From assembly GCA_038062075.1 (NCBI GenBank), contig JBBTXY010000003.1, positions 17,589 through 81,588 of the forward strand: a stretch of 64,000 nucleotides of DNA. The letters run 5' to 3'. Position 1 is the stretch's first letter. Each line of letters begins with the position of its first letter. Of this stretch, positions 9,813 to 44,954 are shown piece by piece. The position numbers were made by a program, and so were the translations under genes. Source of the DNA: Patescibacteria group bacterium (GTDB lineage: Bacteria; Patescibacteriota; Minisyncoccia; Phycocordibacterales; UBA2100). The notes beneath the pieces are model-generated. The model was not told the origin of the DNA. It was given only the letters and a program-made list of their open reading frames with translations, and did no database searches.

Positions 9813-10730
9813 ATGGCTGAAACACTCCAACAAAAAGAGCCGTCACTCGTAGAACGATTCAAAGAGATTGGTTTCGATGATCATGTGATGCTTGCGGCAC
9901 AAGGTGCCGCGCGACTGGGTGCGCGGCAGATATTGAAATTCCACGGTGCGAGTCAGGAGAAACTTCGAACGGAATTGAAGGCAGGCGATATGACTCCTGT
10001 TACGGCTGCGGATATTGCATCGGAAGAGGCGATTCTCAAAATCATAACGACTCGATTGTATTCTCCAGACGAAGTACATGCGGAGGAAAAAGGCCGCGCT
10101 GATACCGCTGAGCACAGTATTATGTGGTACGTTGATCCTCTGGATGGCACTCGGAGTTTTACGCGTGAACAAACAGCTTCCACTGTAGGTATCTGCATGT
10201 ATGAACACAACGAGCCACACACCGCAGTAATCTGTCGACCGTTCCAGTGTGAGCTATTACTCGCGGGTAAAGGAAGAGGCGCATTTGTATTTCCACTTGA
10301 CGACAAGCAGAAAATAATCGGTCCGGCAAAGCGCGTTCACGTAGCAGAGAGAAAAGATCTCACAGGTGGGATTTTCTATTGGGACGGCGTCATGACAGGA
10401 AAGAATGTCGATCGTGCCCTCAGGATGTTTGAAGGGGTGATAGCGGATACCGGAAAAACCGATTTCCGCGCGTTGGGGACGAATATAGGCGAGCAGGCCG
10501 AAGTTGCGCTCGGACACGGCGACTTAAAGTTAACGACCGGCGTCGGGGGATTCTACGATATCGCAGTGGGGGGGTTAATAATCCAGGAAGCCGGAGGGGA
10601 GGTTATTGATGAAAACGGCAAGCCGATAAGCCCGGGATCTAAAGCTGCGCTCTTTGGTAATCCGGAACTCATTAAAAAGTACGGCCCCTTGTTCCAACAG
10701 TGCTATGCGGGCTATGACGGTTTCGCTTAG
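9813..10730 (+). CDS. Inositol monophosphatase family protein (IMPase/FBPase/CysQ fold) paralogue 1
   Basis: 'WYVDPLDGTRSF' plus 'EE' metal-binding motifs. Confidence 0.8.
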   Translation: MAETLQQKEPSLVERFKEIGFDDHVMLAAQGAARLGARQILKFHGASQEKLRTELKAGDMTPVTAADIASEEAILKIITTRLYSPDEVHAEEKGRADTAEHSIMWYVDPLDGTRSFTREQTASTVGICMYEHNEPHTAVICRPFQCELLLAGKGRGAFVFPLDDKQKIIGPAKRVHVAERKDLTGGIFYWDGVMTGKNVDRALRMFEGVIADTGKTDFRALGTNIGEQAEVALGHGDLKLTTGVGGFYDIAVGGLIIQEAGGEVIDENGKPISPGSKAALFGNPELIKKYGPLFQQCYAGYDGFA

Positions 10731-10738
10731 AGCGCCCT

Positions 10739-11458
10739 ATGATCAACTATAAGGTTCTACTTCCGACATCTGGTACGGGTTCGCGACTGAAGGAAATAAC
10801 AAAAAATACCAATAAAGCATTAGTCTCTATTGCAGGAAAGCCTGCCATTGAATATATTCTTTCCTCTTATCCCAAAGAGGTACCAATAGTCGTCACGCTC
10901 GGGTACCTCGGAGAGAGCGTGAAAGCGTACCTCGAAAGCAATCACTCTGATCGGACATTCGAATTTGTGTGGGTTGATAAGTACGAAGGGCCCGGATCGA
11001 GCCTTGGCTATTCGATGCTGAAAGCAAAAGACAACCTCCAGTGCCCCTTCATCTTCCACGCCTGCGACGGCATCTTTGTGGAGCCTATCCCTACGCCGGA
11101 ATACAACTGGATAGGCGGATTTGTGGATGACTGGGAGACGACTAACTTGCCGCTTGAACAGTACCGGACACACACAATGAAGGACGGCGTGATACTCAAT
11201 CTCAATGACCGCGGAATTCCCGGATTTGATTCCATTCACATCGGCCTCGACGGCATCTTCGATTACAAAATCTATTGGGAGACCCTGCAGGCGATTTACG
11301 ATAAAGACCCGAACGACGCGCAAATATCCGATGTGCCCATTCTTGATGCGATGATACAAGCAGGCGTGCAATTCAAATGGATCCCCTACAAAGTCTGGCT
11401 CGACACGGGGAATATTCCCGCACTGCAGAGAACCACAGATTTTCTTTCTACTCAATAA
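10739..11458 (+). CDS. Sugar/alcohol-phosphate nucleotidyltransferase (LicC-like), paralogue of the N-domain of 6047-7621
   Basis: 'KVLLPTSGTGSRL'; 'FVWVDKYEGPGSSLGYSML..PFIFHACDGI' is collinear with 'FVHVDKYTGPGTGPGYSIL..PFIFFTADTM' in the fusion. Confidence 0.7.
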   Translation: MINYKVLLPTSGTGSRLKEITKNTNKALVSIAGKPAIEYILSSYPKEVPIVVTLGYLGESVKAYLESNHSDRTFEFVWVDKYEGPGSSLGYSMLKAKDNLQCPFIFHACDGIFVEPIPTPEYNWIGGFVDDWETTNLPLEQYRTHTMKDGVILNLNDRGIPGFDSIHIGLDGIFDYKIYWETLQAIYDKDPNDAQISDVPILDAMIQAGVQFKWIPYKVWLDTGNIPALQRTTDFLSTQ

Positions 11459-11464
11459 AGTAAG

Positions 11465-11488
11465 AAGCCCCGGTCCTTACCGGGGCTT
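11465..11488. terminator. Bidirectional hairpin terminator between convergent genes
   Basis: Perfect 9-bp stem AAGCCCCGG/CCGGGGCTT with 6-nt loop, directly after stop codon 11458. Confidence 0.5.
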
Positions 11489-11499
11489 CCACGTCACTG

Positions 11500-12186
11500 T
11501 CACTGAATGAGTTGTTCTCGCGCCCACGCGAGCAGTTCTATCGGCAGGTCAGGTTGAGGGTCGCTCCAACCCTTTCCCGGCCAGTCTGCTACACGCACAA
11601 ACTCGTTTAAAAGTTCTGCGCGATGCAGGGGGTTTTCTGCACACAAAGGATCATGCATACACACCACCTGATAGTCGGCAGAGAAACCTTTCTCATCCCG
11701 TGCGATTTTTGTGTGCACGGCATACACCCGCCGAGCACTCCTTGGGTGTACCACCAGAATGATCCGAGTATGTGGCAATCCAAGCCGCACGATCGTGTCT
11801 ATGCCGAAGCGGGAGTTTTCTGCCCCGTTCTTTGCTTTTGTCTCAAGGCGGATCACGTCGCAGGGTACACCGTGGTCAGCGACCAGCAGATTTCTTTGAT
11901 GTATCGCCTCGGAACCGGAAGCTCTGGATAGCTCGCCGGAGTCTTTGCCGATGCCGCCTGTAAGCAAGATCCAGTCGATCTTTCCCAGGCGGTACAGTTT
12001 GGCTGCCGCCCGCGCCACCTCCGCATCTTCCCTGCAGAAGACAAAAGCGCCATTGGCATATTGTACACGGGAGTCATCCGGGGGCAGGAGTCCCATACCC
12101 ATGTACAACGCAACCTGCTGAAGTTTCTCTGAGTCCTTCAAAGGACCCTCCTCTCTGTTCGCTCTTCGCTTCAGCAAGCGAAGCAC
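11500..12186 (-). CDS. DUF218 / YdcF(ElyC/SanA)-like envelope-associated protein
   Basis: 'WILLTGGIGKDSGELS..SEA...ETKAKNGAENS' DUF218 pattern. Confidence 0.55.
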   Translation of the reverse strand: MLRLLKRRANREEGPLKDSEKLQQVALYMGMGLLPPDDSRVQYANGAFVFCREDAEVARAAAKLYRLGKIDWILLTGGIGKDSGELSRASGSEAIHQRNLLVADHGVPCDVIRLETKAKNGAENSRFGIDTIVRLGLPHTRIILVVHPRSARRVYAVHTKIARDEKGFSADYQVVCMHDPLCAENPLHRAELLNEFVRVADWPGKGWSDPQPDLPIELLAWAREQLIQ

Positions 12187-12294
12187 GAGGAGAAAGCTTT
12201 GTCAATTGGAATGTAGCTGGGCGCAGGCGACATTACATGCGGCCGCGACAACGATCATGTCTGGTGGCTATCTTCGGGCAGAGGAAATATAGTA

Positions 12295-12333
12295 GGTAAA
12301 AAACAAACGGTCTCCCCAGCGGGCTGGGGAGAC
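12295..12333 (-). terminator. Rho-independent terminator for IMPase gene (minus strand)
   Basis: Perfect 10-bp stem GGTCTCCCCA/TGGGGAGACC; on minus strand followed by a T-run (GTTTGTTTTTT). Confidence 0.6.
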
Positions 12334-12351
12334 CGAAAGATCGTGTGCTCG

Positions 12352-13227
12352 CTAAACGCGCAACACCTTGTCGCATAGATAGTCGACGATTTGCGGTGAG
12401 TTGCCGGTAACGAGGACGTCATACGCGAGGACGTCAAGAGGGTCGCATTCGGTGAATGAAAAGAGCTCCTTCTTGAACGCCCGGCAGAATCCGCCTGCCT
12501 GCTCCACGAGCAGTGACCCGCAGACATCCCACGGGCCGCCGATTGCGAGCGTGAGCGATCCGGCGATGGAGCGAGCACCATTCGCGACGAGCGCCTGATG
12601 CAAGCCGTTCGAGCCCGGGAGCAGGATTTTCACCTCGCCGTTAAGCGAAGCAAAGAGCTTCGCAGTCTGCGCATCGGTGAGTATCTGCCGACCAGCGCGC
12701 TTAAAGCCATGCGAGACGTCGACGAGAATTGTCAGTTGCTCGTTGACCTCGCTCGTCCTCTTGCCGTCCCATTCGTTGCCGACTTGTATCGGGGCCGAGT
12801 TTTCTCCTGTGGCGAAATTGTGCCACAGAAGCTGGGTTAGCGTTATGTCGCTCGCTGACCATATCCGGCCGGTAGCCGGTTCGCCAATGACGCACCGTGT
12901 TACCTTATGTACATTGTGGTCGTACGTTGCCGCGATGACTGTTGATGTTGCCAATCCGATGGCGAAGGCTCGCGTGCCGTCCATCGGATCCACCAATATT
13001 TTGACTGGCGCATCCACCGTGTGTCGGTCGGACTCCTCGGCATGGATGTAGGTGCCGGGGATGCCTTGCAGAACCTCAAGCATTGCCGCTTGGCTCTGCT
13101 TGTCGGTCGGCGTCACTTGCGTGCCGTCCGTCTGCTTCACTGCGGTCGTGGTCGGCCGGCCTTGGTTGGCACGGACGACTTTCATGCCCGCGATCACTGC
13201 CGTCGTGAGACGGTCGAGCATCTCCAT
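12352..13227 (-). CDS. Inositol monophosphatase family protein paralogue 2
   Basis: 'ILVDPMDGTRAF' motif. Confidence 0.75.
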   Translation of the reverse strand: MEMLDRLTTAVIAGMKVVRANQGRPTTTAVKQTDGTQVTPTDKQSQAAMLEVLQGIPGTYIHAEESDRHTVDAPVKILVDPMDGTRAFAIGLATSTVIAATYDHNVHKVTRCVIGEPATGRIWSASDITLTQLLWHNFATGENSAPIQVGNEWDGKRTSEVNEQLTILVDVSHGFKRAGRQILTDAQTAKLFASLNGEVKILLPGSNGLHQALVANGARSIAGSLTLAIGGPWDVCGSLLVEQAGGFCRAFKKELFSFTECDPLDVLAYDVLVTGNSPQIVDYLCDKVLRV

Positions 13228-13363: not shown

Positions 13364-14278
13364 ATGAAGAAGAAGATTTTGGTGACTGGAGTCGCTGGAT
13401 TCATCGGAAGCAATCTCGCGAAAAGGCTCGTCGAGGCGGGGTATGACGTGGTCGGCTTGGACAACTTTTCCCAGGGCATCCCCGAGCATGTGCCTTCCGG
13501 CATGCGTTTCAAGCAAGCCGATATCCGCTCCCGCGACATAGCACCACTCTTTCGTGGGATAGACGTCGTCTTTCACCTTGCCGCGAAGAATTCGCTTCGG
13601 GATTGCCAGGAAGATCCTGTGGGCACGATGGAGATGAATGTCGTCGGGACCGCGAACGTTTTCGACGTGTCCTTAAAAGCCGGCGTGAAGAAAGTGATCT
13701 ACGCGCAATCGTCGGTTGTTGAAGAAGGCGAGGAGCGCAGAAAAGGTTTCTATGCGATAAGCAAGATCACAGATGAGCTACTCGCGGGCGGGTTTCAGAC
13801 TATGGGTCTCACGACGGTCGGCCTCCGCTATTTCAATGTCTACGGCCCGGGGCAGGATTATCGCCGCTCCTCGCCGCCCATTATGAGCCGCTTCATCTCC
13901 ACGCTCCTCAAAGGGGAGCAGCCAGTTCTTTTTGAGGGTGATGAGAACAACAAGCGCGATTTCATACACGTCGACGACATCAACGATTTCCATCTCCTCT
14001 GTGTCGAAGACGAGCGGGTCGACAATCGAGTGTTTCGGCTAGGGACCGGGAAGAATTTCTCGATGGTTGAAGTGCTCGATACGGTTCAGAAAGTGCTCGG
14101 CACTCACACCGAGTCCTCCCACAAGCCGCGCCCTCCGCATGATCCTCCAGTCCAAACCCTCGCCGATATCAGCGAAACGACCGCACTCGGATGGCAGCCG
14201 ACAATCGGGCTTGAAGAAGGAGTCCGTAGTATGGTGCCCTATATCAAGGCTGAAATAGAGCGCGGGGCTCTCAAGTAG
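13364..14278 (+). CDS. NAD-dependent nucleotide-sugar epimerase/dehydratase (extended SDR)
   Basis: 'ILVTGVAGFIGSNL', 'YAISK' YxxxK. Confidence 0.8.
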   Translation: MKKKILVTGVAGFIGSNLAKRLVEAGYDVVGLDNFSQGIPEHVPSGMRFKQADIRSRDIAPLFRGIDVVFHLAAKNSLRDCQEDPVGTMEMNVVGTANVFDVSLKAGVKKVIYAQSSVVEEGEERRKGFYAISKITDELLAGGFQTMGLTTVGLRYFNVYGPGQDYRRSSPPIMSRFISTLLKGEQPVLFEGDENNKRDFIHVDDINDFHLLCVEDERVDNRVFRLGTGKNFSMVEVLDTVQKVLGTHTESSHKPRPPHDPPVQTLADISETTALGWQPTIGLEEGVRSMVPYIKAEIERGALK

Positions 14279-14310
14279 ACAAGCCCAGATCAAGGGAGTA
14301 CTCTGGCACA

Positions 14311-15303
14311 ATGATAATCACACGGACGCCATTTCGGGTGACTCTTGGCGGCGGCGGGACGGATTTGCCTGCCTACTACGAAAAACACGGCGGGTTCATC
14401 TTTTCCGCCGGACTCGACAAATACATGTATGTGACGGTAAACCGCCCTATGGAAGATGATCTCGTCCGCATCAAATACAGCGCGACTGAAGTCGTCAAGA
14501 AAGTAAAAGACATCAAGCATCCGATCGCACGAGAAGCTCTTACCATGCTGGGCGTTGAGAAGCAGGTCGAGATCAGTTCGGTTGCGGATGTTTCTGCGGG
14601 TACTGGTCTTGGCTCATCGAGCTGTTATGCGGTCGGGATTCTCCACGCGCTCCACGTGATGAAGCGCGATTATGTGCCGCTCCAGACGATCGCGGAAGAA
14701 GATTTTCTTCTGGAGAATAAGAAACTTGGCCGTCCGATAGGGAAGCAAGACCCCTACATGGCCGCGTTCGGCGGGCTCACGGTCTTAGATATCGCCAAAA
14801 ACGGTTCTGTGAAAGTCCGCAAAGCAAATGTATCGCAAGAAGCGGCCGACACGCTGAATCGCAACATGCTCATGTTCTTTACGGGGGTCACACGCAGTGC
14901 CGACGACATTCTCAAGCAACAGTCAAAGGCCTTCAAAGGAAACAAAAAAGACGCGACCGAGAGCATGCACTACATCAAGGAGATTGGGCACGAGATACTT
15001 GCGGCCATGGAGGATGACGAAGTTGATGAAGTGGGAAGGCTCTTCGATGCACACTGGCGACACAAGAAGAAGACAGCAAGCGGCATGTCGAACTCGAAGT
15101 TTGATGCGATCTACGAGACGGCGAAAGATGCCGGGGCGCTTGGGGGGAAGATTTCCGGCGCTGGCGGCGGCGGATTCTTTACATTCTATGTCCCGGAGAG
15201 GCACAAAGAATTCAGGAAGGCAATGCAGAAGTACGGCCTTCGCGAACTTCGCTACCACTTTGACTTCGAGGGATCAAAAGTCTTGGCCGACATCAGCCAG
15301 TAG
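14311..15303 (+). CDS. hddA: D-glycero-alpha-D-manno-heptose 7-phosphate kinase (GHMP kinase)
   Basis: 'MIITRTPFRVTLGGGGTDLP' HddA-type N-terminus; GHMP 'GLGSSS' motif. Confidence 0.7.
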   Translation: MIITRTPFRVTLGGGGTDLPAYYEKHGGFIFSAGLDKYMYVTVNRPMEDDLVRIKYSATEVVKKVKDIKHPIAREALTMLGVEKQVEISSVADVSAGTGLGSSSCYAVGILHALHVMKRDYVPLQTIAEEDFLLENKKLGRPIGKQDPYMAAFGGLTVLDIAKNGSVKVRKANVSQEAADTLNRNMLMFFTGVTRSADDILKQQSKAFKGNKKDATESMHYIKEIGHEILAAMEDDEVDEVGRLFDAHWRHKKKTASGMSNSKFDAIYETAKDAGALGGKISGAGGGGFFTFYVPERHKEFRKAMQKYGLRELRYHFDFEGSKVLADISQ

Positions 15304-15305
15304 CT

Positions 15306-16040
15306 ATGAAGGATCCGAAGCCGGTGCACAAACTGCGTCTGAAGATATTCGCTGATGGCGCAGAGAAAGACGGCATGCTCGCGCTTGCGAAAGAGCCTTT
15401 TATTAAGGGGTTTACCACCAACCCGACTCTCATGAAAAAGGCGGGTATTACTGATTATGCGGCGTTTGCAAAAGATATTCTCGCCTCCATAACAAAAAAA
15501 CCCATCTCATTCGAGGTTTTTTCCGACGATTTTGATGAGATGGAGCGGCAGGCGCGCATCATCAATGCGTGGGGGGAGAATATCTACGTGAAAATTCCGG
15601 TTACCAACACGAAAAAGAAGTCGGCCGCGGCGCTCGTCAGAAAGCTCTCTCATGAAGGGATTCGACTCAATGTCACGGCGCTTCTTACGCTTGTGCAAGT
15701 GAAGGAAATGACCGCAGCGCTCTCGCCGAAAACTCCCGCGATCATTTCTGTCTTTGCCGGCCGCATTGCGGATACGGGTTACGACCCGCTTCCTATCATG
15801 AAAGCCGCAAAAGCGATCACCTTGAGAAAGAAAAATATTGAGCTTCTCTGGGCGTCGCCGCGCCAGCTCTTTGACATCTACAATGCCGAGGCTGCGGGAG
15901 CCGATATTATTACGGTGACGCACGACGTTCTCAAAAAACTCGACAAGATCGGGTACGACCATACGGCACTTTCCCTGGACACGGTGAAAATGTTCTATGA
16001 CGACGGCCAGAAAGTTGGCTACACACTCTATGAAGCGTGA
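15306..16040 (+). CDS. tal: Transaldolase (short Tal/Fsa type)
   Basis: 'LKIFADGAE...GFTTNPTLM' transaldolase signature; lies between hddA and gmhA. Confidence 0.8.
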   Translation: MKDPKPVHKLRLKIFADGAEKDGMLALAKEPFIKGFTTNPTLMKKAGITDYAAFAKDILASITKKPISFEVFSDDFDEMERQARIINAWGENIYVKIPVTNTKKKSAAALVRKLSHEGIRLNVTALLTLVQVKEMTAALSPKTPAIISVFAGRIADTGYDPLPIMKAAKAITLRKKNIELLWASPRQLFDIYNAEAAGADIITVTHDVLKKLDKIGYDHTALSLDTVKMFYDDGQKVGYTLYEA

Positions 16041-16047
16041 GGCAAAA

Positions 16048-16710
16048 ATGAGAACGAAGAAGAAGCGCACTCGCACAAAAAAGCGGATCGCAAGAAAAAC
16101 GAGCTACCACGATCACATTCACGGCTACTTGGACGAAGTGAAGCTTATCGCGGAGCGGATTGATCGCGAAGCGATCAATGACATGATCAACCTGCTTGCG
16201 GATGTGCGCGATAAAAAGGGGCGGCTCTTCATTCTTGGTGTTGGCGGCTCTGCGGCCAACGCTTCTCATGCCGTCAATGATTTTCGAAAAATCGGGCACA
16301 TCGAGGCATACACGCCGGTGGATAATGTCGCAGAGTTAAGCGCCCGTACGAACGACGACGGATGGGAATCGGTCTTCGCCCGATGGCTGGAGCGCAGTGG
16401 CGTTCGGAAAGATGACGCCGTCATGGTGTTTTCTGTTGGCGGCGGGAATGCCGAGAAGAATATAAGCGCCAATATCGTGCATGCACTTAACACTGCCAAA
16501 GCTGCAGGCGCGAAGATCATGGGTATCGTGAGCCGTGATGGAGGTTATACCGCACAAGTTGCCGATGCCTGTGTCATCGTGCCAGTCGTAAATCCCGACA
16601 ACGTGACCGCGCACGCGGAGGCGTGGCAGGCGGTCGTCTGGCACGCGATGGTCCTCCATCCGAAATTCAAGCGTATTGAGGCAACATGGGAGTCAATCCA
16701 AAAAAGATAG
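16048..16710 (+). CDS. gmhA: Sedoheptulose-7-phosphate isomerase (SIS domain)
   Basis: 'LFILGVGGSAANASHAVNDF' SIS motif; N-terminal Lys/Arg-rich extension. Confidence 0.7.
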   Translation: MRTKKKRTRTKKRIARKTSYHDHIHGYLDEVKLIAERIDREAINDMINLLADVRDKKGRLFILGVGGSAANASHAVNDFRKIGHIEAYTPVDNVAELSARTNDDGWESVFARWLERSGVRKDDAVMVFSVGGGNAEKNISANIVHALNTAKAAGAKIMGIVSRDGGYTAQVADACVIVPVVNPDNVTAHAEAWQAVVWHAMVLHPKFKRIEATWESIQKR

Positions 16711-17294
16711 AACTTATTCGCCAAGTGTGGGCAAAAGGGAACCGTGTCGCACGGCCCGCAGTTTTTTTTGACAGGGACGGGGTTGTGATCCGACAGCGTA
16801 ATGTGGTGAGCGAGGAGAAACATATGCGCCCGCTTGCGGGAGCAGCTGCAGGACTACGCTCACTTCAGGAGTGCGGATTTCTGCTCATCATCATCACGAA
16901 TCAGCCGTCCATTGAAAAGGGTATGGTGACGGAGGCGCGCGCGCGAAGACTTAATGAGTATTTATACCAGGAGCTCAAGAAAAAAAGAGTAACATTTGAC
17001 GCATCGTACACGTGTCCGCATCGTTTCGGGACGGAGTGCACCTGCCGCAAGCCGGGTCTCGAGCTCATCCGCGCGGCACAAAAAGATTTCAAAATTGATA
17101 TGAAGCAGAGCTGGCTTATCGGCGATACGACGCGTGATATGGAAACTGGACGCCGCGCCAAGCTAAAGACGATTCTCGTCAAAACCGGCGATGGCGGGAA
17201 AGATAAAAGATTTTTCAAAACGCGAGGGGACATTGAAACGCGAAATTTGCGCCTCGCGGCGCAGGCCATTGCAAAGAAGAAGGGCCGACTGTAA
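16686..17294 (+). CDS. gmhB: D,D-heptose 1,7-bisphosphate phosphatase (HAD-IIIA, Zn-binding CxHx..CxC)
   Basis: 'VFFDRDGVV' plus 'CPHRFGTECTCRKP' zinc motif typical of GmhB/HisB-N. Confidence 0.7.
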   Translation: MGVNPKKIELIRQVWAKGNRVARPAVFFDRDGVVIRQRNVVSEEKHMRPLAGAAAGLRSLQECGFLLIIITNQPSIEKGMVTEARARRLNEYLYQELKKKRVTFDASYTCPHRFGTECTCRKPGLELIRAAQKDFKIDMKQSWLIGDTTRDMETGRRAKLKTILVKTGDGGKDKRFFKTRGDIETRNLRLAAQAIAKKKGRL

Positions 17295-17307
17295 TGAAAG
17301 TCGGCCC
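17282..17307. terminator. Hairpin terminator between convergent gmhB and HAD genes
   Basis: 9-bp perfect stem GGGCCGACT/AGTCGGCCC; gmhB stop codon lies in the loop. Confidence 0.5.
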
Positions 17308-17317
17308 CCTCGTCCTT

Positions 17318-18019
17318 TTAGGAAAGGTTTTCGATAAGCGCAAGCATGTTGATCTCGCGCCAGTCGAAAAAGATGCGACAAACGCCAGCCTCGACAAGCG
17401 CGGCAACCGTCGTTGGTCGAATGACGACCGGCATTCCGATTGCTTTTGACCCGGCCCCTCTCAGAGCCTTGACGCCGCGGGGTGAATCTTCGAAACCAAT
17501 CTGATCTCTAGGGTCAATTCCCATGACATCGGCGGTCCGCAGGAACACATCTGGAGCGGGCTTCTCGTTTCTGACGTGCTCGCGGAGAACGATTGTCTTT
17601 TTGTCGAACAGCTCACTGAGTCCTGATCGCTCAAGAAGTGTCATGGCTTGCCCTTCTGGTGTAAGAGAACCAATGGCAAGCTTTAAGCCCAGCGCTTGTG
17701 CTATCCTGAATGCCTCAAGAAATCCTGGGCGGGTCTCAATGGGCACTGTCGCGAGCAGACGCTCGTAGTAGTATTTGTCGCGGCTTAGCACTTCACCAAC
17801 TGCTATGCTGGTGCGTGCTGCTGGATCGAGCAGGGCAAAAATGTCTTCACACACTCGCTCATCCGGCCCACCGATGAAGTGCGGTAATTTCACATACGCC
17901 TCTTCGAGTGTGAGGTTAACTCCGAATTCTGCCGCCGTCGCGAGATGGCCGTAGTGGTGTGCAGTTTCAACGTTAACAACAGTACCTTCGAGGTCGAAGG
18001 CGATTCCTCTTATGGGCAT
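17318..18019 (-). CDS. HAD-IA hydrolase (beta-phosphoglucomutase/phosphatase-like)
   Basis: 'IAFDLEGTV' motif I; HAD core. Confidence 0.7.
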   Translation of the reverse strand: MPIRGIAFDLEGTVVNVETAHHYGHLATAAEFGVNLTLEEAYVKLPHFIGGPDERVCEDIFALLDPAARTSIAVGEVLSRDKYYYERLLATVPIETRPGFLEAFRIAQALGLKLAIGSLTPEGQAMTLLERSGLSELFDKKTIVLREHVRNEKPAPDVFLRTADVMGIDPRDQIGFEDSPRGVKALRGAGSKAIGMPVVIRPTTVAALVEAGVCRIFFDWREINMLALIENLS

Positions 18020-18031
18020 GACACCCTCCTT

Positions 18032-18466: not shown

Positions 18467-18565
18467 CGGTTTATCCTTTCAAGGTGCAGTTTGAACGCAG
18501 CCAAGATAGTACCACAAGTATTGAGTATTACAAGTGGGCGGGGGTGCAGTTCGTAATCAGCCTGC

Positions 18566-38838: not shown

Positions 38839-40197
38839 ATGGTCAAAGCGCTCTGCAGAGGCGCGTGTGCATTGTTGACACAGTCCACATCCTGGACAAT
38901 GATGCTACGGATGAAGGCACGCTATCCGAAACATCATGCGATACGGACCGGCCACATCGCGCGCTGTCAGATATGCAATTCCTTGAAACTGCATCTCATT
39001 CTGGATCTCGGGTTCCAGCCGCCGGCTGACTCGCTCTTAACGACGCAGATGCTCAATGAGCCGGAGAAGACGTATCCCCTGCGGATGGTGTGGTGCGAGA
39101 AATGCACGGGGGTCCAGCTCGATTACTGCGTCGACGGAAAAGAGGTGTATCACCCGAACTATCCATACCGAAGCGGCATCACGAAGCCCTTGGCAGAATA
39201 TCAGCGGAACATCAGCCACTCTCTCATTGAGAAGTACAATCTCGGCCCGAAAGACCTCGTGATAGACGTTGGCTCCAACGACGGGACGCTCCTTAGCGGC
39301 TTCAAGGAAAAAGGCGTGCGGGTCTTAGGCGTTGAGCCGACGAACACTGCCGATATCGCGAACAAAAGCGGCATCAAAACCGTCAAGTCGTTTTTCGACA
39401 TCAAAACAGCGCGTGCGATACGGAAGAAATACGGCAAGGCCGCAGTCATGACCGCGACCAATGTCTTTGCGCACATGCAGACTTTGGGCGAGGTGATCAT
39501 GGGTATCTATGAACTTCTCGAGGACGACGGCGTGTTCGTTTCCGAATCGCACTATCTTTTGGATGTCATCAAAGACAATCAATTCGATACGATATACCAC
39601 GAGCACCTGCGGACGTATTCACTGCACTCCCTTATCGCGCTTTTCAAGCAGTATGATTTCACCATAACGGATGTCGAGCGGGGGAGCCGGTACGGCGGCA
39701 ATATCCGCGTGCATGTCACCAAAGGGAAGGGGAGAAAGGCGAGTCCCGCAGTCGGGAAGCTGCTCGCGGAGGAGAAGAAATTCGGGCTCGGCAAGCTGAA
39801 GACTTACACGACGTTCGCAAAGCGTGTCCGGAAGGCGCGGCTAGAACTCATAGACTTCCTTATTCAGGCGAAGAAGAAAGGCAAGCGCATCGCCGGGAAA
39901 TCAAGTCCCGCCCGTGCCGCGACCCTTCTTAATTACTATGGCATCGACACCGAGCTCATTCCGTATCTGGCTGAACAGCCGACCTCGCTGAAACTTAATC
40001 AGTATCTGCCCGGCGGGCACATTCCGATTGTTGATGAAAAGATTCTTCGTAAAGACAAGCCTGATTACATCGTTTTAATGGCGTGGCATTATGCGAAGGA
40101 GATCTCCAAACGTCTCAAGGTTGAAGGCATACGATCGGACTTTGTCGTGCCGCTTCCCGAAGTGCGCGTGATAAAAAATGCGGCGGTAAAAGCGTAG
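38839..40197 (+). CDS. Zinc-ribbon NDP-sugar C-methyltransferase family (TylCIII-like; Methyltransf_13 + MTase + C-MTase C-domain), copy 1
   Basis: 'CQICNS...CEKC' zinc ribbon, 'VIDVGSNDG' motif I, C-terminal domain. Start probably an internal Met (~38899). Confidence 0.6.
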   Translation: MVKALCRGACALLTQSTSWTMMLRMKARYPKHHAIRTGHIARCQICNSLKLHLILDLGFQPPADSLLTTQMLNEPEKTYPLRMVWCEKCTGVQLDYCVDGKEVYHPNYPYRSGITKPLAEYQRNISHSLIEKYNLGPKDLVIDVGSNDGTLLSGFKEKGVRVLGVEPTNTADIANKSGIKTVKSFFDIKTARAIRKKYGKAAVMTATNVFAHMQTLGEVIMGIYELLEDDGVFVSESHYLLDVIKDNQFDTIYHEHLRTYSLHSLIALFKQYDFTITDVERGSRYGGNIRVHVTKGKGRKASPAVGKLLAEEKKFGLGKLKTYTTFAKRVRKARLELIDFLIQAKKKGKRIAGKSSPARAATLLNYYGIDTELIPYLAEQPTSLKLNQYLPGGHIPIVDEKILRKDKPDYIVLMAWHYAKEISKRLKVEGIRSDFVVPLPEVRVIKNAAVKA

Positions 40198-40200
40198 CGC

Positions 40201-41226
40201 ATGCTCAACGTTGCTATTGTCGGCTCGGGTTTTGGTCGGTACGGTCTCCTGCCTGCGTTTGCTGCGGTGCCGCAGTGCACGGTTGTCGCGGTATGCGGGA
40301 AGAAAACAGATTCCCTTCGTAAAGATTGCCGGCGTTTTGGTGTTGAACATATCTACGAAGACTGGCGTGCGCTTTTGAAGAACGAGCGTATTGACGCGAT
40401 TGCGCTCGCGGTAACGCCGCGCGCGCAATACACGATTTCGAAAGCGGCGCTTCGCCAAGGCATCCATGTTTTCGCGGAAAAGCCGCTGGCGGTGGATCTC
40501 GCGCAGGCGAACGAACTCTTGCGCCTCGCACGGAAAAAACGCATTGTCACTGCGGTTGATTTCACCTTTCCGGAAATCGCCGCATGGCAGAAGGTCAAGC
40601 GATTGCTCGATGCGAAGACCTACGGCGAATTGCGGCATATCACAGCGAATTGGGATTTTTTGAGCTACGATATTGCGCACAAACGGAAGTCGTGGAAGAC
40701 CATCGCCGCCGAAGGCGGCGGAGCGCTGTCATTCTTTTTCTCGCACGGGTTGTACTATCTCGAGCATTTCGCGGGGACAATCTCGGATGTGCAGAGTAAC
40801 TTCTCGTACGCGAAGGAAAGTCTCGGCGGCGCGGAGGCGGGCGTCGATATGCTGCTCACGTTCCAGAGCGGAGTCATGGGAAGTGCGCACATCTCCTGCG
40901 CCGCGCGGGGTCTCCACCGCCACCAGCTTCTCTTCCACTGCGCACGTGCGACGATCGTGCTTGAGAACGAAGGGAGCCATATGAGCGGCTTCACGCTCAC
41001 CGTCTACGAGAAAGGGGCGCGGCGCATCGCGGTTTCTGCCGAGCGAGTCGTCAAGCATCAAGATCCACGCGTTCCTTTCGTGAAAAAGATCGCCGCACGG
41101 TTTGTCAGGAGCTGCCGGAGCGGCGCAACGATGCACCCGGGTTTTAAGGAGGGAGTGCGTGTGCAGGAGCTGATAGCACAGATACGATCCCGGCACACAG
41201 GTACGAAACCACGAGCTGCACGTTGA
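40201..41226 (+). CDS. Gfo/Idh/MocA-family oxidoreductase (cassette copy 1)
   Basis: 'VAIVGSGFGRYG', 'EKP'. Confidence 0.7.
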   Translation: MLNVAIVGSGFGRYGLLPAFAAVPQCTVVAVCGKKTDSLRKDCRRFGVEHIYEDWRALLKNERIDAIALAVTPRAQYTISKAALRQGIHVFAEKPLAVDLAQANELLRLARKKRIVTAVDFTFPEIAAWQKVKRLLDAKTYGELRHITANWDFLSYDIAHKRKSWKTIAAEGGGALSFFFSHGLYYLEHFAGTISDVQSNFSYAKESLGGAEAGVDMLLTFQSGVMGSAHISCAARGLHRHQLLFHCARATIVLENEGSHMSGFTLTVYEKGARRIAVSAERVVKHQDPRVPFVKKIAARFVRSCRSGATMHPGFKEGVRVQELIAQIRSRHTGTKPRAAR

Positions 41227-41245
41227 TAAAGGCCTGTACAATGGT

Positions 41246-42685
41246 ATGTCTCGTATGAAAGAGCAGACATTCGATTATATTGTTCTTGGCGGCGGTGTCT
41301 CGGGTTTGGGATTCGCGAAGCGGGTGAGCGAGAACAGCAGGTCGGTGTTGGTCCTCGAAAAAGAAGCAGTTGTCGGCGGCCTCTCGCGGAGCCTCCAGCA
41401 TAAGGGGTTTTATCTGGACTTTTGCGCGCATCGCTTCCACACAAAGAACAAAGCTCTCCTTGATGAGATCCGTTCGCTTCCCGGTCTCACGATGGAGCGC
41501 CATATCAAGAAGAGCCGCATCTACATGTTCGGGAAGTATTTGAAGTATCCGTTCGAGATACAGAATCTCCTTCGCGCCATGCCTATCACCCAGAGCTTCC
41601 TTTCAGGGCTCTCGTTCCTCAAGAACCTCGCGTTGAAATCGCTGCGAACGACGCGAGACCTGCGCTCATATAAAGATTGGTTCGTTCATCTCTATGGTAC
41701 ACGCCTGTATGAAGTCATGTGCCGGCCGTATACCTCGAAGATATGGCATCGTGATCCCAGCGAGATATCCGCAGATTGGGCCGATCAGCGTTTCCAAGGA
41801 GAGAACCTCTCCAAGCTTCTCGGGCGGATCATGAAGAAGATACTCACGCTGGATTTCAGTTCATACAATCTGGAGGACGACAGCCTCGCCCCGGATGGCG
41901 GCGCATTCTACTATCCACTGCGCGGCATCCAGGAGATGCCGGACGCGCTCGCGCGCTCAGCGGAGCGGAATGGCGCTCGCATTCTCACGAAGACAACGGT
42001 CACTAAGGTGAATACCGCTGCACGTACGGTTACGTTCGAGCACGAGGGGGTTCCTCGTACGGTCTCCTATGCTCAACTGATATCGACGATCCCCCTGCAT
42101 GCATACTATGCGCTCCAGGAGCGGCGCGATCCAAGGATCGAAAAGCACCTCACCAGCCTCACGTACATGGACATCATCTTTGTCTATCTATTTCTGGACA
42201 TTCCCCAGGTCTCCAACGACCACTGGTTGTATTTCCCGGACCCGGACATTATCTTCAATCGCGCCGTTGAGTTCTCGAACTGGTCGCCGCAGATGTGCCC
42301 ACCGGGGAAGACCGCGATTTGTTTCGACATCACGGTATTCCTCGAATCACCGGAATGGCAGATGAGCGATGAGGTGCTCATCGAGCGGACGATCGCCGAC
42401 GCGGCGCGCGTGGAGTATGTTAGAAAAGAGCATGTCGAAGAGGGGTTGGTTTTCCGCGTCACGCACGCGTATCCGTTCTACGACCTCGACTATCGAACGA
42501 AACTGGATGCGATCGTCCGCTTTCTTGAGACGGAACACGTGCATCTTCTCGGTCGCACTGGCATTTTCCGCTACAACAACTCCGACAACTCCATCGAGAT
42601 GGGCTTCGAGCTTGCGGAGAAGATGCTTGCCGGGAGATCTGCCGCGAGCGCTCACGAATATCGGGTAAAAGAAGTGAGCTACTGA
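41246..42685 (+). CDS. FAD-dependent oxidoreductase (amine-oxidase/PPO/Glf-like Rossmann), copy 1
   Basis: 'DYIVLGGGVSGLGFA...VLEKEAVVGG' dinucleotide-binding motif. Confidence 0.65.
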   Translation: MSRMKEQTFDYIVLGGGVSGLGFAKRVSENSRSVLVLEKEAVVGGLSRSLQHKGFYLDFCAHRFHTKNKALLDEIRSLPGLTMERHIKKSRIYMFGKYLKYPFEIQNLLRAMPITQSFLSGLSFLKNLALKSLRTTRDLRSYKDWFVHLYGTRLYEVMCRPYTSKIWHRDPSEISADWADQRFQGENLSKLLGRIMKKILTLDFSSYNLEDDSLAPDGGAFYYPLRGIQEMPDALARSAERNGARILTKTTVTKVNTAARTVTFEHEGVPRTVSYAQLISTIPLHAYYALQERRDPRIEKHLTSLTYMDIIFVYLFLDIPQVSNDHWLYFPDPDIIFNRAVEFSNWSPQMCPPGKTAICFDITVFLESPEWQMSDEVLIERTIADAARVEYVRKEHVEEGLVFRVTHAYPFYDLDYRTKLDAIVRFLETEHVHLLGRTGIFRYNNSDNSIEMGFELAEKMLAGRSAASAHEYRVKEVSY

Positions 42686-42690
42686 CGGAT

Positions 42691-44079
42691 ATGCATCTCC
42701 TGCGGAGCATGTTCGGCGAGAAAAGGATACGCTTTACGCTTTTCGCGATCTCTCTCCTCGCGCACCTCGTCGTATTCGCGCTGCTCCTCGTGCACTACGG
42801 TCCGTCGGCATCTTTTTTTTCGGTCGACGGGTCGTTGAATGGCAACGACGCGCAGCACTACGTGACGATCGCGAAGAATCTTGCGGAGGGGAACGGGTAC
42901 TCCCGTTTCCCGGACGCGCCATTCGAGCCGGATGCGTTCCGTACGCCACTTCTCCCGCTCTATTTCGTCCCCTTCGTCTTTTTCGGCGGCCTGCCCCTCA
43001 TATGGCTCCCCATTCTTCTTTTAAATCTAATCCTCGCATTCGCGGCGGTCCTCATGTACAAGCTGGCACGGCTCTTCCTCCCGCATGGATATGCGGCGGC
43101 CGCCGGGCTCGCCATGGCGCTTGACCCCTTGTTTTTGTACCGCAGCCAGCTCGCGGAACCGGACGCGCTCTTCGTGTTTCTCACGCTCGGTGCTGCATAC
43201 TTCTGCGCGCTGTTCTGGGGGACCGCGCGTCCTCGCTACATCCTCTTTTCGTCGGTCATCTTAGGCATCTCCATCCTTCTCAAACCGACCGGACTGTATG
43301 TCGCGATCATCCTCTTTGCATGCCTCGCCGCGTTCGTCTTTTTCTTCAGACGAGGAGAGTGGCGCATGCATGCGAGGCATCTCATTTTCGGGGCATTGAT
43401 ACTACTGGCGCTTCTTGCGCCATGGCTGATACGCAACCACGCGTCCTTCGGCGTCTGGGGTATCTCGAGCGTCGGCGGATTTAATCTCTACGAATTCTAT
43501 ACGGTGAACCAGCGGTTGCCCGGTGAGCAAGTGCCCGAGAACATAGCGACGAGCAGTCGGGAACCGAGCCGACACCTTCCGAACCAGTCATACTTTACGG
43601 ACGTTGCAATGGAGAGGATACGAGAGGCGCCGCTCTCCTATGCGAAAGAACAGGCGGTGGGGACGTTGCGCAACCTGTTCGTTTCGGAGTTGCCGGTCAT
43701 CTACTACTATGGCCATAGCGCTCTCTTGCCTTTTCCCTACAATCCGGAGTCAACAACAAACCTGCGCGAACTTCTGCTCCAAGGGGACGGAGCGAGCGTC
43801 TTCTTTGCGCTTGCCCACAATATCCCGAAGGTTCTCTGGTTCGCCGCGCTTCTTTTTGTCTATATCCTTACCTTTCTCGGCTGGCTGTACGCATGGAAGA
43901 AGGATCGTGTCGTCTTCCTCATGTTCACCTCCTTCATCCTGATCTTCGGGTATTTTGTCGTCGCCTCGGGACCGTATGTCGACGCTAAATACCGGATGCC
44001 CGCAATGCCGCTCATCGTGATAGTGTGTGCATATGGCGTTTATGAGTTGCGGAGTCAATGGTGGCGAATACGACCATGA
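42691..44079 (+). CDS. GT-C fold membrane glycosyltransferase (ArnT/PMT-like)
   Basis: Multi-TMS, Dol-P-sugar transferase-like topology. Confidence 0.55.
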   Translation: MHLLRSMFGEKRIRFTLFAISLLAHLVVFALLLVHYGPSASFFSVDGSLNGNDAQHYVTIAKNLAEGNGYSRFPDAPFEPDAFRTPLLPLYFVPFVFFGGLPLIWLPILLLNLILAFAAVLMYKLARLFLPHGYAAAAGLAMALDPLFLYRSQLAEPDALFVFLTLGAAYFCALFWGTARPRYILFSSVILGISILLKPTGLYVAIILFACLAAFVFFFRRGEWRMHARHLIFGALILLALLAPWLIRNHASFGVWGISSVGGFNLYEFYTVNQRLPGEQVPENIATSSREPSRHLPNQSYFTDVAMERIREAPLSYAKEQAVGTLRNLFVSELPVIYYYGHSALLPFPYNPESTTNLRELLLQGDGASVFFALAHNIPKVLWFAALLFVYILTFLGWLYAWKKDRVVFLMFTSFILIFGYFVVASGPYVDAKYRMPAMPLIVIVCAYGVYELRSQWWRIRP

Positions 44080-44954
44080 GTATTGAAAAAGCATTTGACC
44101 ATAATTCCTTCAGAGGCGAAATACTGCGCCCTGATTTTTTGCGGAGCGTCGTTGAGGCGGGGAATCTCGCACTTAACGTTCGACAAGAGGGTCTTACATC
44201 CGAGGTTAAATCAACAAAGGAAGACATTGTCACCCGCGGCGACCTTGCTGTTTCTTCGATGCTGCGCGAGCGGCTCTCACAGCTTTTCCCGGGGATTGTC
44301 TTTATTGACGAAGAAGTCCCGGAGAGCGACTCGCTTGATATAACAGCGCATGCGATGGTCGCCATCATTGACCCCATTGATGGCACGACGAATTACTATA
44401 ACAAGGGAGAAAAAGATTCTTCGGAAGCTCCCGCAAACCCGAACTGGGCCGTTTCGGTTGGGATCACACGAGAGGGAAAACTACACGCCGGGGTCATATA
44501 TCAGCCAATGCTGCAGAAGTTATTTTATGCGGAAAGGGGTCGTGGTGCCTATATGAATGGCAAACGTCTTCATGTCTCGACGACCCAGTCGCTTTCGGAT
44601 GCGCGGCTCATCTACGATTACCCCTATCCTAAAGACAAGAAGGAATACGAGCTTACCGGCCGTGTACTTGCTGCGCTGGAGCCGCAGATAACGTCTGCAG
44701 AGCGGCTCGGGAGCGCTGTCGTAGAGACCATGGAAGTGGCAGAGGGGAAAAGCGACTTCTTTATGCTTTTGAGGACCCAGCCATGGGATGTGGCCGCCGC
44801 GGCTGTTATCGTCGAAGAGGCGGGCGGGACAGCTTTTAATGCAACAGGTGAGCCGTTCAAAATCGGCAACCGCTCGATCGTACTCACAAATGGAAAGATT
44901 GAAATCGCGCCTCTGATACATCTCATTTACCAGAAATTGGGGAGTGATTCATAA
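44058..44954 (+). CDS. Inositol monophosphatase family protein paralogue 4
   Basis: 'AIIDPIDGTTNY'. Confidence 0.7.
   Translation: MVANTTMSIEKAFDHNSFRGEILRPDFLRSVVEAGNLALNVRQEGLTSEVKSTKEDIVTRGDLAVSSMLRERLSQLFPGIVFIDEEVPESDSLDITAHAMVAIIDPIDGTTNYYNKGEKDSSEAPANPNWAVSVGITREGKLHAGVIYQPMLQKLFYAERGRGAYMNGKRLHVSTTQSLSDARLIYDYPYPKDKKEYELTGRVLAALEPQITSAERLGSAVVETMEVAEGKSDFFMLLRTQPWDVAAAAVIVEEAGGTAFNATGEPFKIGNRSIVLTNGKIEIAPLIHLIYQKLGSDS

Follow-up and report, generated by a model that had tools for sequence, protein, structure and literature searches.

Why should a single surface-glycan locus of a Patescibacteria genome carry four genes of the inositol monophosphatase (IMPase) family, whose members commonly receive the default annotation of inositol monophosphatase, CysQ or fructose-1,6-bisphosphatase (FBPase)? 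The locus lies in a stretch of 64,000 nucleotides, hereafter the window (GenBank assembly GCA_038062075.1, contig JBBTXY010000003.1, positions 17,589 to 81,588 of the forward strand), and all coordinates below are window positions unless another locus is named. Judging from sequence and gene context, we think it fairly probable that the four genes, IMP1 to IMP4, encode predicted Mg-dependent phosphomonoesterases that are dedicated parts of three precursor-supply cassettes of the glycan island rather than housekeeping enzymes. The best reading is that each serves a particular nucleotide-sugar route as a dedicated phosphatase of sugar or polyol phosphates, with substrates that we infer, and that the IMPase fold has probably been recruited here for unusual surface sugars. 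Gene context gives good support to such a recruitment into the synthesis of glycan precursors, because relatives of all four genes are found in glycan or nucleotide-sugar clusters of other Patescibacteria.

The window is a real, independently assembled segment of a Kaiserbacteria-like genome of the candidate phyla radiation (CPR) from groundwater, since the same DNA occurs in independent assemblies at NCBI (GCA_964363605.1, CAYIIW010000001.1, 27697–91696), at ENA (sample 'Hain_H51_01um') and in Logan. The context examined comprised the window and its flanks, about 79 kb of one contig including 8.4 kb upstream, and its gene content was taken from precomputed Pfam assignments and additional Pfam and NCBIfam scans. 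We observed a continuous glycan-biosynthesis island of more than 60 kb, which starts 8.4 kb or more upstream of the window, ends at about 55.7 kb and is followed by the SecA and GatB genes. The island encodes GT1, GT2 and GT4 glycosyltransferases, Wzx- and Wzy-like proteins, many epimerases/dehydratases and methyltransferases, and several nucleotidyltransferases.

Fold, active site and subfamily placement

The original prediction, made from the window alone, had described four IMPase-fold genes with a DPxDGT motif, and our searches bear this out. The Inositol_P family PF00459 (gathering score 27) matches IMP1 (9813–10730, plus strand, alternative start 9756) with 114 bits, IMP2 (12352–13227, minus strand) with 59 bits, IMP3 (18566–19552, minus strand) with 79 bits and IMP4 (44058–44954, plus strand), the most canonical copy, with 190 bits. 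A six-frame scan of the window for DP[ILMV]D[GS][TS] returned exactly four occurrences, one in each of these open reading frames (ORFs): DPLDGT at 10134, DPMDGT at 12973, and DPIDGT at both 19208 and 44370. No fifth IMPase-like ORF was found in the window by phmmer. The family normally contributes a few copies to a whole genome, so four copies among about 35 genes are far more than chance would give.

The remaining metal ligands, comprising the EE pair and the WD motif, are found in all four proteins, with YD in place of WD in IMP1, whose clade has F/Y-D where the others have W-D. Across alignments of 41 IMP2-type and 35 IMP3-type proteins, the metal-site residues show little or no variation. 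The two-domain alpha/beta sandwich was modelled for IMP3: an AlphaFold (AF2) model built from the clade alignment reached a predicted local distance difference test score (pLDDT) of 91.9 and adopts the IMPase fold. Foldseek aligned this model with solved IMPases at probability 1.0 and a target-normalised template-modelling (TM) score of 0.8; its top match was Thermotoga maritima TM1415, and its identity to IMPases was 16–21%. These results indicate that all four proteins belong to the IMPase superfamily and have intact predicted catalytic sites.

Are the four then recent copies of one gene, or members of the well-known subfamilies? Their pairwise identities of 22–28% exclude a recent duplication, and by this measure they are ancient paralogues. 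The original prediction had proposed to place them against SuhB, CysQ, FBPase and HisN; they formed clades of their own and reached none of the equivalog models, which is not the picture of standard housekeeping enzymes that happen to be scattered. In the order IMP1 to IMP4, the scores were 56.5, 22.4, 33.1 and 95.8 bits against the SuhB equivalog (NF008027, cut-off 332), 81, 38, 45 and 94 bits against CysQ (TIGR01331 and NF008182, cut-offs 229 and 379), 88.6, 61.7, 53.3 and 115 bits against HisN (TIGR02067, cut-off 275), and 54.7, 22.7, 25.4 and 91.6 bits against the bifunctional FBPase/IMPase (NF009321, cut-off 264). The nearest approach to any NCBIfam equivalog was thus that of IMP4 to HisN, at 115 of 275 bits. 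Against solved structures, IMP4 scored ~100 bits (SuhB, human IMPA1), followed by IMP1 at 62, IMP3 at 49 and IMP2 at 27 bits.

We built a distance-based neighbor-joining tree of 75 sequences with 300 bootstraps from members of the four clades, generic IMPases that the searches had returned, and Escherichia coli SuhB and CysQ (NC_000913.3); HisN and FBPase references were compared through hidden Markov models. Clades c1, c2 and c3, which contain IMP1, IMP2 and IMP3, were each recovered in 300/300 replicates and clade c4, which contains IMP4, in 282/300. The IMP1 and IMP2 clades were sisters in 196/300 replicates, and in none of the 300 did any of the four clades group with E. coli SuhB or CysQ. 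Taken together, the equivalog models and the tree reject a housekeeping assignment for IMP1–IMP3 and make it weak for IMP4.

The clades are also rare. Among 5.8 billion clustered proteins, IMP1 has about 11 relatives, IMP2 has 68, and IMP3 has about 49, after which the scores for IMP3 fall sharply from 179 to 58 bits. Every relative of IMP1–IMP3 with an informative organism name is from Patescibacteria (Kaiserbacteria or Parcubacteria), a few being labelled only 'bacterium', and it is in Candidatus Kaiserbacteria metagenome-assembled genomes (MAGs) that the proteins studied have their closest relatives. A pattern-based scan of 185,579 species genomes yielded nine IMP3-type loci, of which all that are informatively labelled are Patescibacteria. 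For IMP4, 23 representatives were found at E<=1e-30 among 1.84 billion proteins; about nine make up its own clade and the others grade into generic IMPases. Enzymes this rare are unlikely to serve core housekeeping functions of the phylum.

Could the four nevertheless be housekeeping phosphatases that merely happen to be located in the island? Such enzymes, above all IMP4, would act as a general IMPase/FBPase or as a phosphatase of nicotinamide adenine dinucleotide phosphate (NADP) or 3'-phosphoadenosine 5'-phosphate (pAp), supplying fructose-6-phosphate or clearing toxic by-products. The score of IMP4 against SuhB and human IMPA1 and its position among generic IMPases speak for this explanation, as does the match of IMP3 to TM1415, its closest structure and a dual IMPase/FBPase; furthermore, no other FBPase was seen in the window. 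On the other hand, all the equivalog cut-offs are missed widely, the clades are extremely rare instead of broadly conserved in Patescibacteria, synteny of the IMP types with sugar-activation genes persists down to 36–50% identity, and both IMP4 and a 44%-identical relative sit within glycan operons. On balance we hold this explanation to be quite unlikely. No genes for sulfotransferases or 3'-phosphoadenosine 5'-phosphosulfate (PAPS) metabolism and no histidine genes were detected in the window, nor were any histidine, ascorbate, riboflavin or sulfate-assimilation genes near IMP1–IMP4.

Gene neighbourhoods of the four phosphatases

What do the neighbours say about the pathways in question? To examine synteny, we searched 56 proteins of the window against every ORF in 40-odd related loci (numbered L010 and upward) and inspected Pfam-annotated contexts. 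IMP1 and IMP2 lie in a first set of genes, cassette A (4323–13227), IMP3 lies in a second, cassette B (13364–24125), and IMP4 belongs to an operon further along the island.

Cassette A starts, on the plus strand, with a 389-aa protein carrying a C-terminal cupin (4323–5492; Cupin_2 E=1.9e-4, sub-threshold), homologues of which occur within the cassette in L010, L012, L014, L026, L027 and L030. A KdsC-like HAD phosphatase follows (5502–6044, plus strand; TIGR01670 KdsC 73 bits and KDN-9-P phosphatase 70 bits, both below cut-off), which is syntenic in L012, L014 and L026. The next gene (6047–7621, plus strand) encodes a 524-aa fusion of an N-terminal LicC-like nucleotidyltransferase (NTP_transf_3, 31.3 bits; best PDB match LicC 1jyk, E=3e-5) with a C-terminal APH/choline-kinase-like kinase. 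The C-terminal half gave no match in the PDB sequence search, and its assignment as a putative kinase comes from conserved motifs, HGDxxxxN (387–394) and LLDW (409–412), which are invariant, together with consistent sub-threshold APH matches in 4/4 homologues. The architecture of the protein resembles LicCA. It stays linked to the KdsC-like HAD and an IMPase even in L012, a reduced locus that consists of a ribulose-phosphate 3-epimerase, an IMP1-type gene, the fusion protein and the KdsC-like HAD.

Three further plus-strand genes lead up to IMP1. The first encodes a GatZ/KbaZ-like TIM barrel of the class-II-aldolase superfamily (7624–8631; PF08013 24.8 bits, cut-off 26.7); its homologues carry PF08013/PF01116 flags, and hhalign paired it with E. 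coli GatZ at a probability of 58% over 110 N-terminal columns (the N-terminal third) and with GatY at 1.5%. The others are a short-chain dehydrogenase/reductase (SDR; 8618–9331; adh_short_C2, 198 bits) and a 156-aa cupin resembling the C-terminal part of mannose-6-phosphate isomerase (9341–9811; Cupin_2 E=6e-5 and MannoseP_isomer E=2.4e-4, both sub-threshold), whose homologue in L014 is flagged PF01050.

As the original prediction had it, one of the IMPases directly precedes a nucleotidyltransferase: IMP1 ends at 10730 and, after a gap of 8 nt, a divergent 239-aa sugar-phosphate nucleotidyltransferase starts at 10739 (10739–11458, plus strand; PF00483 24.2 bits, cut-off 21.2). This is the most constant neighbour of the IMP1 and IMP2 types, being adjacent in L010, L013/L026, L014/L028, L027, L030 and L052. 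Downstream of IMP2 lies a DUF218 protein (11500–12186, minus strand; PF02698 37.7 bits). Such SanA/ElyC/YdcF-like proteins stand beside IMP2-type genes in four separate contexts, namely the window, L037 (9147–9779), L047 (11021–11650) and L049 (7171–7800), and in L037 the gene is translationally coupled.

Elsewhere cassette A is incomplete and its gene order variable; the IMP1 and IMP2 types are co-located with varying subsets of the 239-aa nucleotidyltransferase, the nucleotidyltransferase–kinase fusion, the GatZ-like gene, the KdsC-like HAD and the cupins (L010, L012, L013/L026, L014/L028, L027, L030, L036 and L052). An IMP2-type gene is present without an IMP1 type in L013/L026, L014/L028 and L027. 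In L010, from a Kaiserbacteria MAG, two tandem IMP1-type genes (9051–10933 of that locus), 46% and 73% identical to IMP1, occur and the KdsC-like HAD is missing, which looks like the replacement of one phosphatase fold by another. At least two phosphatases were present in 5/5 cassette-A contexts inspected (the window, L010, L012, L014/L028 and L013/L026), as a HAD and an IMPase or, in L010, as two IMPases. More distant relatives of IMP2 (<42% identity) occupy glycan contexts of other kinds, where Wzx, Wzy-TPR, epimerases, HADs and DUF218 are found; one such context, seen in L047 and L049, is an RmlA-like/GT2 arrangement that resembles the surroundings of IMP4.

The nucleotidyltransferases of cassette A bear on a second explanation, which the original prediction had offered as an alternative: the IMPases might supply inositol (phosphate) for inositol glycans or cytidine diphosphate (CDP)-inositol, with LicC/IPCT-like nucleotidyltransferases activating inositol phosphate. 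Inositol-1-phosphate is the canonical substrate of the family, the N-terminal domain of the fusion protein is weakly IPCT-like (PDB 2xme, E=0.031; NF041135, 20 bits), and several genes for GFO/IDH/MocA oxidoreductases, the family of inositol dehydrogenase, are found in the island. Matches to the IPCT-type cytidylyltransferase model NF041135 (cut-off 580) are weak throughout, at 19–31 bits. On the other hand, ordinary nucleotide-sugar pathways often include GFO/IDH/MocA enzymes, the scores fall short of the SuhB equivalog, and the Pfam assignments of the window and the 8.4 kb upstream of it contain neither a myo-inositol-1-phosphate synthase nor a CDP-alcohol phosphatidyltransferase (DIPPS-type). 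The gene context thus lends no support to inositol-phosphate glycans, and we judge the inositol explanation very unlikely.

Cassette B begins on the plus strand with a block of five genes: an NAD-dependent epimerase of the LmbM class (13364–14278; GalE 130 and heptose 6-epimerase 117 bits, below cut-offs), an HddA-like GHMP kinase of the LmbP class (14311–15303; HddA the top NCBIfam match, 155 bits, cut-off 600), a transaldolase of the LmbR class (15306–16040; TIGR02134 332.8 bits, above the cut-off of 282), a GmhA-like SIS-domain sugar-phosphate isomerase of the LmbN class (16030–16710; PF13580; GmhA 63 bits, below cut-off) and a GmhB-like HAD-IIIA phosphatase of the LmbK class (16686–17294; GmhB NF006506 128 bits, cut-off 178; TIGR01662 102 bits, passing its cut-off of 44.6). 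It ends, again on the plus strand, with a nucleotide-sugar dehydrogenase of the LmbL class (20314–21618; TIGR03026 297 bits, above the cut-off of 190), a GFO/IDH/MocA oxidoreductase of the LmbZ class (21615–22604; precomputed Pfam), an SDR oxidoreductase (22594–23409; precomputed Pfam, adh_short) and a ManC/HddC-like sugar-1-phosphate nucleotidyltransferase of the LmbO class (23400–24125; mannose-1-phosphate guanylyltransferase 112 and HddC 91 bits, below cut-offs). No aminotransferase, of the LmbS type or any other, was found in the window. The product of the cassette may be a C8 (or C7) surface sugar of CPR bacteria.

Between these two blocks, IMP3 lies in a run of four minus-strand genes, in order a 251-aa HD-motif protein (19536–20291), IMP3, a hydrophobic 144-aa multi-pass membrane protein, EamA-like by way of a homologue (18032–18466), and a beta-phosphoglucomutase-family HAD (17318–18019; TIGR02009 89 bits, below cut-off). 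The original prediction had one IMPase sharing an operon with a HAD hydrolase and an HD phosphohydrolase; the HAD is there, and the HD label is plausible and weakly supported, because it comes from an H...HD motif (H57, H89-D90) and sub-threshold Pfam matches (HD_3 E=0.056; another at 0.12). The stop of the HD-motif gene overlaps the start of IMP3 by 17 nt, and in the 547-aa Kaiserbacterium protein P0084 an HD-motif protein and an IMP3 homologue are fused, the N-terminal half being 56% identical to the 251-aa protein. The latter was not detected beside more distant IMP3-type genes and gave no match in the PDB sequence search, and its AF2 model (pLDDT 46.5, from a two-sequence alignment) is unusable. 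Clear homologues of the beta-phosphoglucomutase-family HAD (174–221 bits) adjoin IMP3 types in L017, L020, L021 and L023, whereas near distant IMP2 types there are only weak HAD-like matches to it (20–58 bits). Homologues of the membrane protein stand beside IMP3 types in L015, L022 and L027, the L015 copy being weakly flagged as EamA.

IMP3 lies inside cassette B in 7/9 GTDB loci (L017 and L020–L025), the other two being a 3-kb contig and a contig end, and the same arrangement is seen in L013/L026 and L027. Cassette B as such is kept in at least 10 Patescibacteria loci. In a single case, L010, there is a simple heptose core that lacks the transaldolase, dehydrogenase and GFO genes and also lacks IMP3. 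As a separate observation, the gene cluster of a 42%-identical IMP3 relative includes, ~8.5 kb upstream of that gene, a TagF-like CDP-glycerol glycerophosphotransferase (Glyphos_transf; L015/L019, 207–1526), a hint that some of these bacteria may make polyol-phosphate polymers resembling teichoic acids.

Do the IMPases, as the original prediction suggested, act as sugar-bisphosphate phosphatases in the manner of GmhB? In its strict form this would mean that they take the terminal phosphate off aldose 1,n-bisphosphates made by GHMP or APH-like kinases, and so deliver a sugar-1-phosphate to the adjacent nucleotidyltransferase. The position of IMP1 directly before a nucleotidyltransferase, whose homologue almost always stands beside IMP1 and IMP2 types, agrees with this, as does the kinase domain in the same cassette; the resulting isomerase–kinase–phosphatase–nucleotidyltransferase set parallels GmhA–HddA–GmhB–HddC. 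On the other hand, cassette B of every locus already includes a GmhB-like HAD, a KdsC-like HAD is also found in cassette A, the operon of IMP4 begins at a sugar-1-phosphate and needs no such step, and the known APH-type kinases LicA and AmgK act on unphosphorylated alcohols. As an account of the IMPases in general we find the strict role quite improbable. Of the suggestion as first made, the recruitment into glycan synthesis is borne out by context and a GmhB role is possible for IMP1 and IMP2, which have a kinase domain and nucleotidyltransferases nearby; it does not hold for IMP3 as a substitute for GmhB, given the GmhB-like HAD at 16686–17294, and the operon of IMP4 has no obvious bisphosphate step.

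IMP4 follows a PMT_2 (GT-C, ArnT-like) glycosyltransferase gene (42691–44079, plus strand; PF13231 39 bits), whose stop overlaps the start of IMP4 by 22 nt. The genes after it, all on the plus strand, encode an NDP-sugar (nucleoside diphosphate sugar) 4,6-dehydratase-like protein of the RmlB/Gmd type (45005–46060; GDP_Man_Dehyd 184 bits), an RmlA-like sugar-1-phosphate nucleotidyltransferase (46066–46776; TIGR01207 234 bits, cut-off 361), a 236-aa GT2 resembling polyprenyl-phosphate glycosyltransferases (ArnC/Dol-P-hexose transferase; 46782–47492; NF007986 71 and NF041391 51 bits, below cut-offs) and an RmlD-like reductase (47499–48398; RmlD_sub_bind 185 bits). IMP4 is thus translationally coupled into an operon of RmlA/B/D-like and polyprenyl-phosphate glycosyltransferase genes. 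Its relative P0157 (44% identical) is the last gene of a PMT–GT–GT–ManC-like–Bac_transf operon on a 470-kb contig, and the best relative of IMP4, P0154, is on a 1.1-kb contig without context.

The GT2 in this operon raises the further explanation of synthase/phosphatase pairs, in which a glycosyltransferase, for example this GT2, would glycosylate a phosphorylated small acceptor and the IMPase would then remove the phosphate. Such logic is known from the glucosyl-3-phosphoglycerate, sucrose-6-phosphate and di-myo-inositol-phosphate-phosphate pathways; a nucleotidyltransferase–IMPase–GT2–IMPase order is found in L047 and L049, a GT2 follows two genes after IMP4, and this GT2 weakly matches glucosyl-3-phosphoglycerate synthase (25 bits). 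It scores better, however, against polyprenyl-phosphate glycosyltransferases (ArnC, 71 bits), the three PMT_2 GT-C enzymes of the island use lipid-linked donors, and neither IMP1 nor IMP3 shows an evident partner of this sort. This explanation strikes us as very improbable.

Proposed roles within the glycan island

How might pathway-dedicated phosphatases, the reading we prefer, work in each cassette? In cassette A, a hexose or pentose phosphate would be remodelled by the GatZ-like epimerase/aldolase, the cupin isomerase and the SDR; the IMP1/IMP2-type enzyme and the KdsC-like HAD would strip the metabolic phosphate(s); and the APH-like kinase and the two nucleotidyltransferases would add an activating phosphate and then the nucleotide. 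A relocation of phosphate is suggested because a kinase domain, two nucleotidyltransferases and no fewer than two phosphatases are constantly present, and a remodelling of a ketose phosphate is suggested because the GatZ-like protein is accompanied by a cupin isomerase and an SDR. Ketose bisphosphates are products of class II aldolases. GatZ/KbaZ proteins epimerise fructose-6-phosphate to tagatose-6-phosphate (PMC11907403). The order of steps could run from phosphatase to kinase (a free-sugar or polyol route, as with LicA/LicC or CDP-2-glycerol) or, equally possibly, from kinase to phosphatase (a bisphosphate route, as in GmhA–HddA–GmhB–HddC). In both cases the IMP1/IMP2-type enzyme would act on a sugar or polyol phosphate.

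In cassette B, IMP3 would be a conserved extra phosphatase in a set of homologues of the guanosine diphosphate (GDP)-octose/heptose enzymes. It must act in addition to that set, because the cassette covers all the octose/heptose steps, including that of the terminal-phosphate phosphatase. Our preferred guess is that IMP3 might be a ketose 1,n-bisphosphate 1-phosphatase, akin to a sedoheptulose- or octulose-bisphosphatase, which would irreversibly supply the donor or the product of the transaldolase. Aldolase can condense dihydroxyacetone phosphate and ribose-5-phosphate to octulose-1,8-bisphosphate, and in yeast one bisphosphatase has both sedoheptulose and octulose bisphosphates as substrates (PMC5854111); we favour this activity because the octulose bisphosphate can be made and the yeast enzyme provides a precedent. 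For IMP4 the proposal goes no further than its presumed co-translation with the Rml-like/polyprenyl-phosphate-sugar operon, and we name no step. A more specific version would make IMP3 an obligatory enzyme of a Patescibacteria-specific C8 pathway homologous to the lincosamide GDP-octose route, and IMP1 and IMP2 the phosphatases of a second, LicCA-like and so far undescribed route, in which a donor of a rare hexose or polyol arises by remodelling, dephosphorylation, renewed phosphorylation and nucleotidylation; in this full form we regard it as tentative and rather unlikely.

The fusion in P0084 and the overlaps of IMP3 and IMP4 with the genes before them speak for dedicated roles. Several points weigh against dedicated roles for the four enzymes. 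Every step of the Lmb and Gmh–Hdd schemes is already covered by an enzyme in cassette B, the GmhB-like HAD included, so that no known scheme needs a step by IMP3, and the Rml-type operon around IMP4 has no known step that requires a phosphatase. IMP4 is nested among generic SuhB-like IMPases in the neighbor-joining tree and could be the general IMPase/FBPase of the cell. IMP2 and IMP3 are on the opposite strand to most of the cassette genes. The synteny counts are neither independent nor free of ascertainment bias, because it was searches with the IMPases that yielded the loci, some of which are closely related (L026 and L027, 81–83% identical). Furthermore, the GatZ-like, APH, HD and cupin isomerase calls among the neighbours are sub-threshold matches, and every substrate named for IMP1–IMP4 is putative, deduced from the company the genes keep.

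The surrounding island adds observations of its own. Three PMT_2 (GT-C, ArnT-like) glycosyltransferases are encoded at 31392–32717 (minus strand), 35336–36793 (minus strand) and 42691–44079 (plus strand), together with a GT2–GtrA fusion (33982–35301, minus strand) and the ArnC/DPM1-like GT2 (46782–47492, plus strand), a set that points to polyprenyl-phosphate-linked sugars for glycosylation outside the membrane. A three-gene module of a C-methyltransferase (Methyltransf_13/14), a GFO/IDH/MocA oxidoreductase and an amine-oxidase-type flavoprotein occurs twice, at 38899–42685 and 49821–53406; its two ancient copies are 34%, 22% and 26% identical. A gene for an NYN-domain protein, a predicted RNase, lies mid-island (27640–28140). 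Past GatB, from 60400 to 64000, the G+C content falls to 0.47 and a Y1-transposase-like gene (61135–61815) and an HTH_17 gene (61931–62929) are found, with many short ORFs without a Pfam match beyond the window end; this region may be a mobile element at the edge of the island. A scan for tRNA genes as possible markers of the island borders found none.

What would dedicated phosphatases mean beyond this locus? Three rare, lineage-restricted clades appear as fixed parts of nucleotide-sugar cassettes in groundwater bacteria of ultra-small size, about whose surface glycans next to nothing has been described, which argues for caution in transferring the annotation 'inositol monophosphatase' to CPR genomes. 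If the context-based reading is true, a well-studied superfamily would gain new substrate classes and two undescribed CPR sugar-activation routes would gain candidate enzymes, one of these routes looking like the only known octose pathway outside the producers of lincosamide antibiotics; the proteins would be small, soluble and easily expressed, suited to reconstitution of the pathways in vitro. If the C8 reading is true, CPR surfaces would carry higher-carbon or rare sugars, made by pathways in which the IMPase fold replaces or joins HAD phosphatases.

Comparison with known systems

Our literature search found nothing relevant on IMPase-family genes in CPR bacteria or in O-antigen or capsule clusters, and no report of IMPase genes as fixed parts of glycan or nucleotide-sugar cassettes or of these CPR clades. 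Recruitment of the IMPase fold to pathway-specific substrates is itself already known, from HisN, CysQ, class IV FBPase, VTC4 and a riboflavin-pathway phosphatase. HisN, plant VTC4, CysQ and the IMPase of Aquifex riboflavin synthesis (PDB 9mmi) are precedents for a recruitment to particular phosphate esters, VTC4 being an L-galactose-1-phosphate phosphatase of the family (PMC5854111). The HisN and riboflavin-pathway structures 5zon and 9mmi were among the matches of the IMP3 model, but none of these enzymes was matched at the equivalog level.

The bifunctional IMPase/FBPases of Thermotoga and archaea (TM1415, MJ0109 and AF2372) have the same fold and metal site, and their removal of the C1 phosphate of a ketose bisphosphate is the chemistry proposed for IMP3 and possibly for IMP1 and IMP2. 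They differ in sequence (16–21% identity) and are enzymes of central metabolism, whereas those described here would serve glycan cassettes. GmhB and LmbK, in turn, share the setting, a phosphatase within an isomerase–kinase–phosphatase–nucleotidyltransferase cassette for an NDP-higher-sugar. They have, however, a HAD-IIIA fold with a DxDxT nucleophile motif, so that with the IMPase fold of IMP1–IMP4 the analogy is functional only, and since a GmhB-like HAD is itself present (16686–17294), the IMPases are additions rather than replacements.

Cassette A recalls LicA/LicC (and the LicCA fusion), the Gtp1–3 route to CDP-2-glycerol and AmgK/MurU, in which a kinase of the APH/choline-kinase type and a LicC-like nucleotidyltransferase activate a free alcohol or sugar. 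The pneumococcal gtp1–3 genes provide a route to CDP-2-glycerol through the free polyol. An arrangement of the LicA/LicC type needs a free, dephosphorylated substrate, which would explain the phosphatases beside the kinase and nucleotidyltransferase. The similarity is, on the other hand, weak (LicC E=3e-5; APH sub-threshold), and we know of no IMPase-family genes that accompany systems of these types. The existence of the gtp1–3 genes has been noted (PMC1391919).

Cassette B, finally, resembles the GDP-octose pathway of lincomycin and celesticetin, in which LmbR is the transaldolase, LmbN the isomerase, LmbP the kinase, LmbK the phosphatase, LmbO the guanylyltransferase, LmbM the epimerase, LmbL the dehydrogenase and LmbZ the oxidoreductase (PMC4351081, Table 2; PMC12945683). 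Unlike that pathway, it has an SDR instead of an LmbS-type aminotransferase, it adds IMPase, HAD, EamA-like and HD-like genes, and it belongs to a CPR glycan island and not to an antibiotic cluster; a heptose pathway with its own supply of sedoheptulose-7-phosphate is an equally valid view of it. The match, which is at the level of enzyme families only, nevertheless provides one member for each of the LmbR, N, P, K, O, M, L and Z families, including the otherwise unusual transaldolase and the pair of dehydrogenase and GFO/IDH/MocA oxidoreductase.

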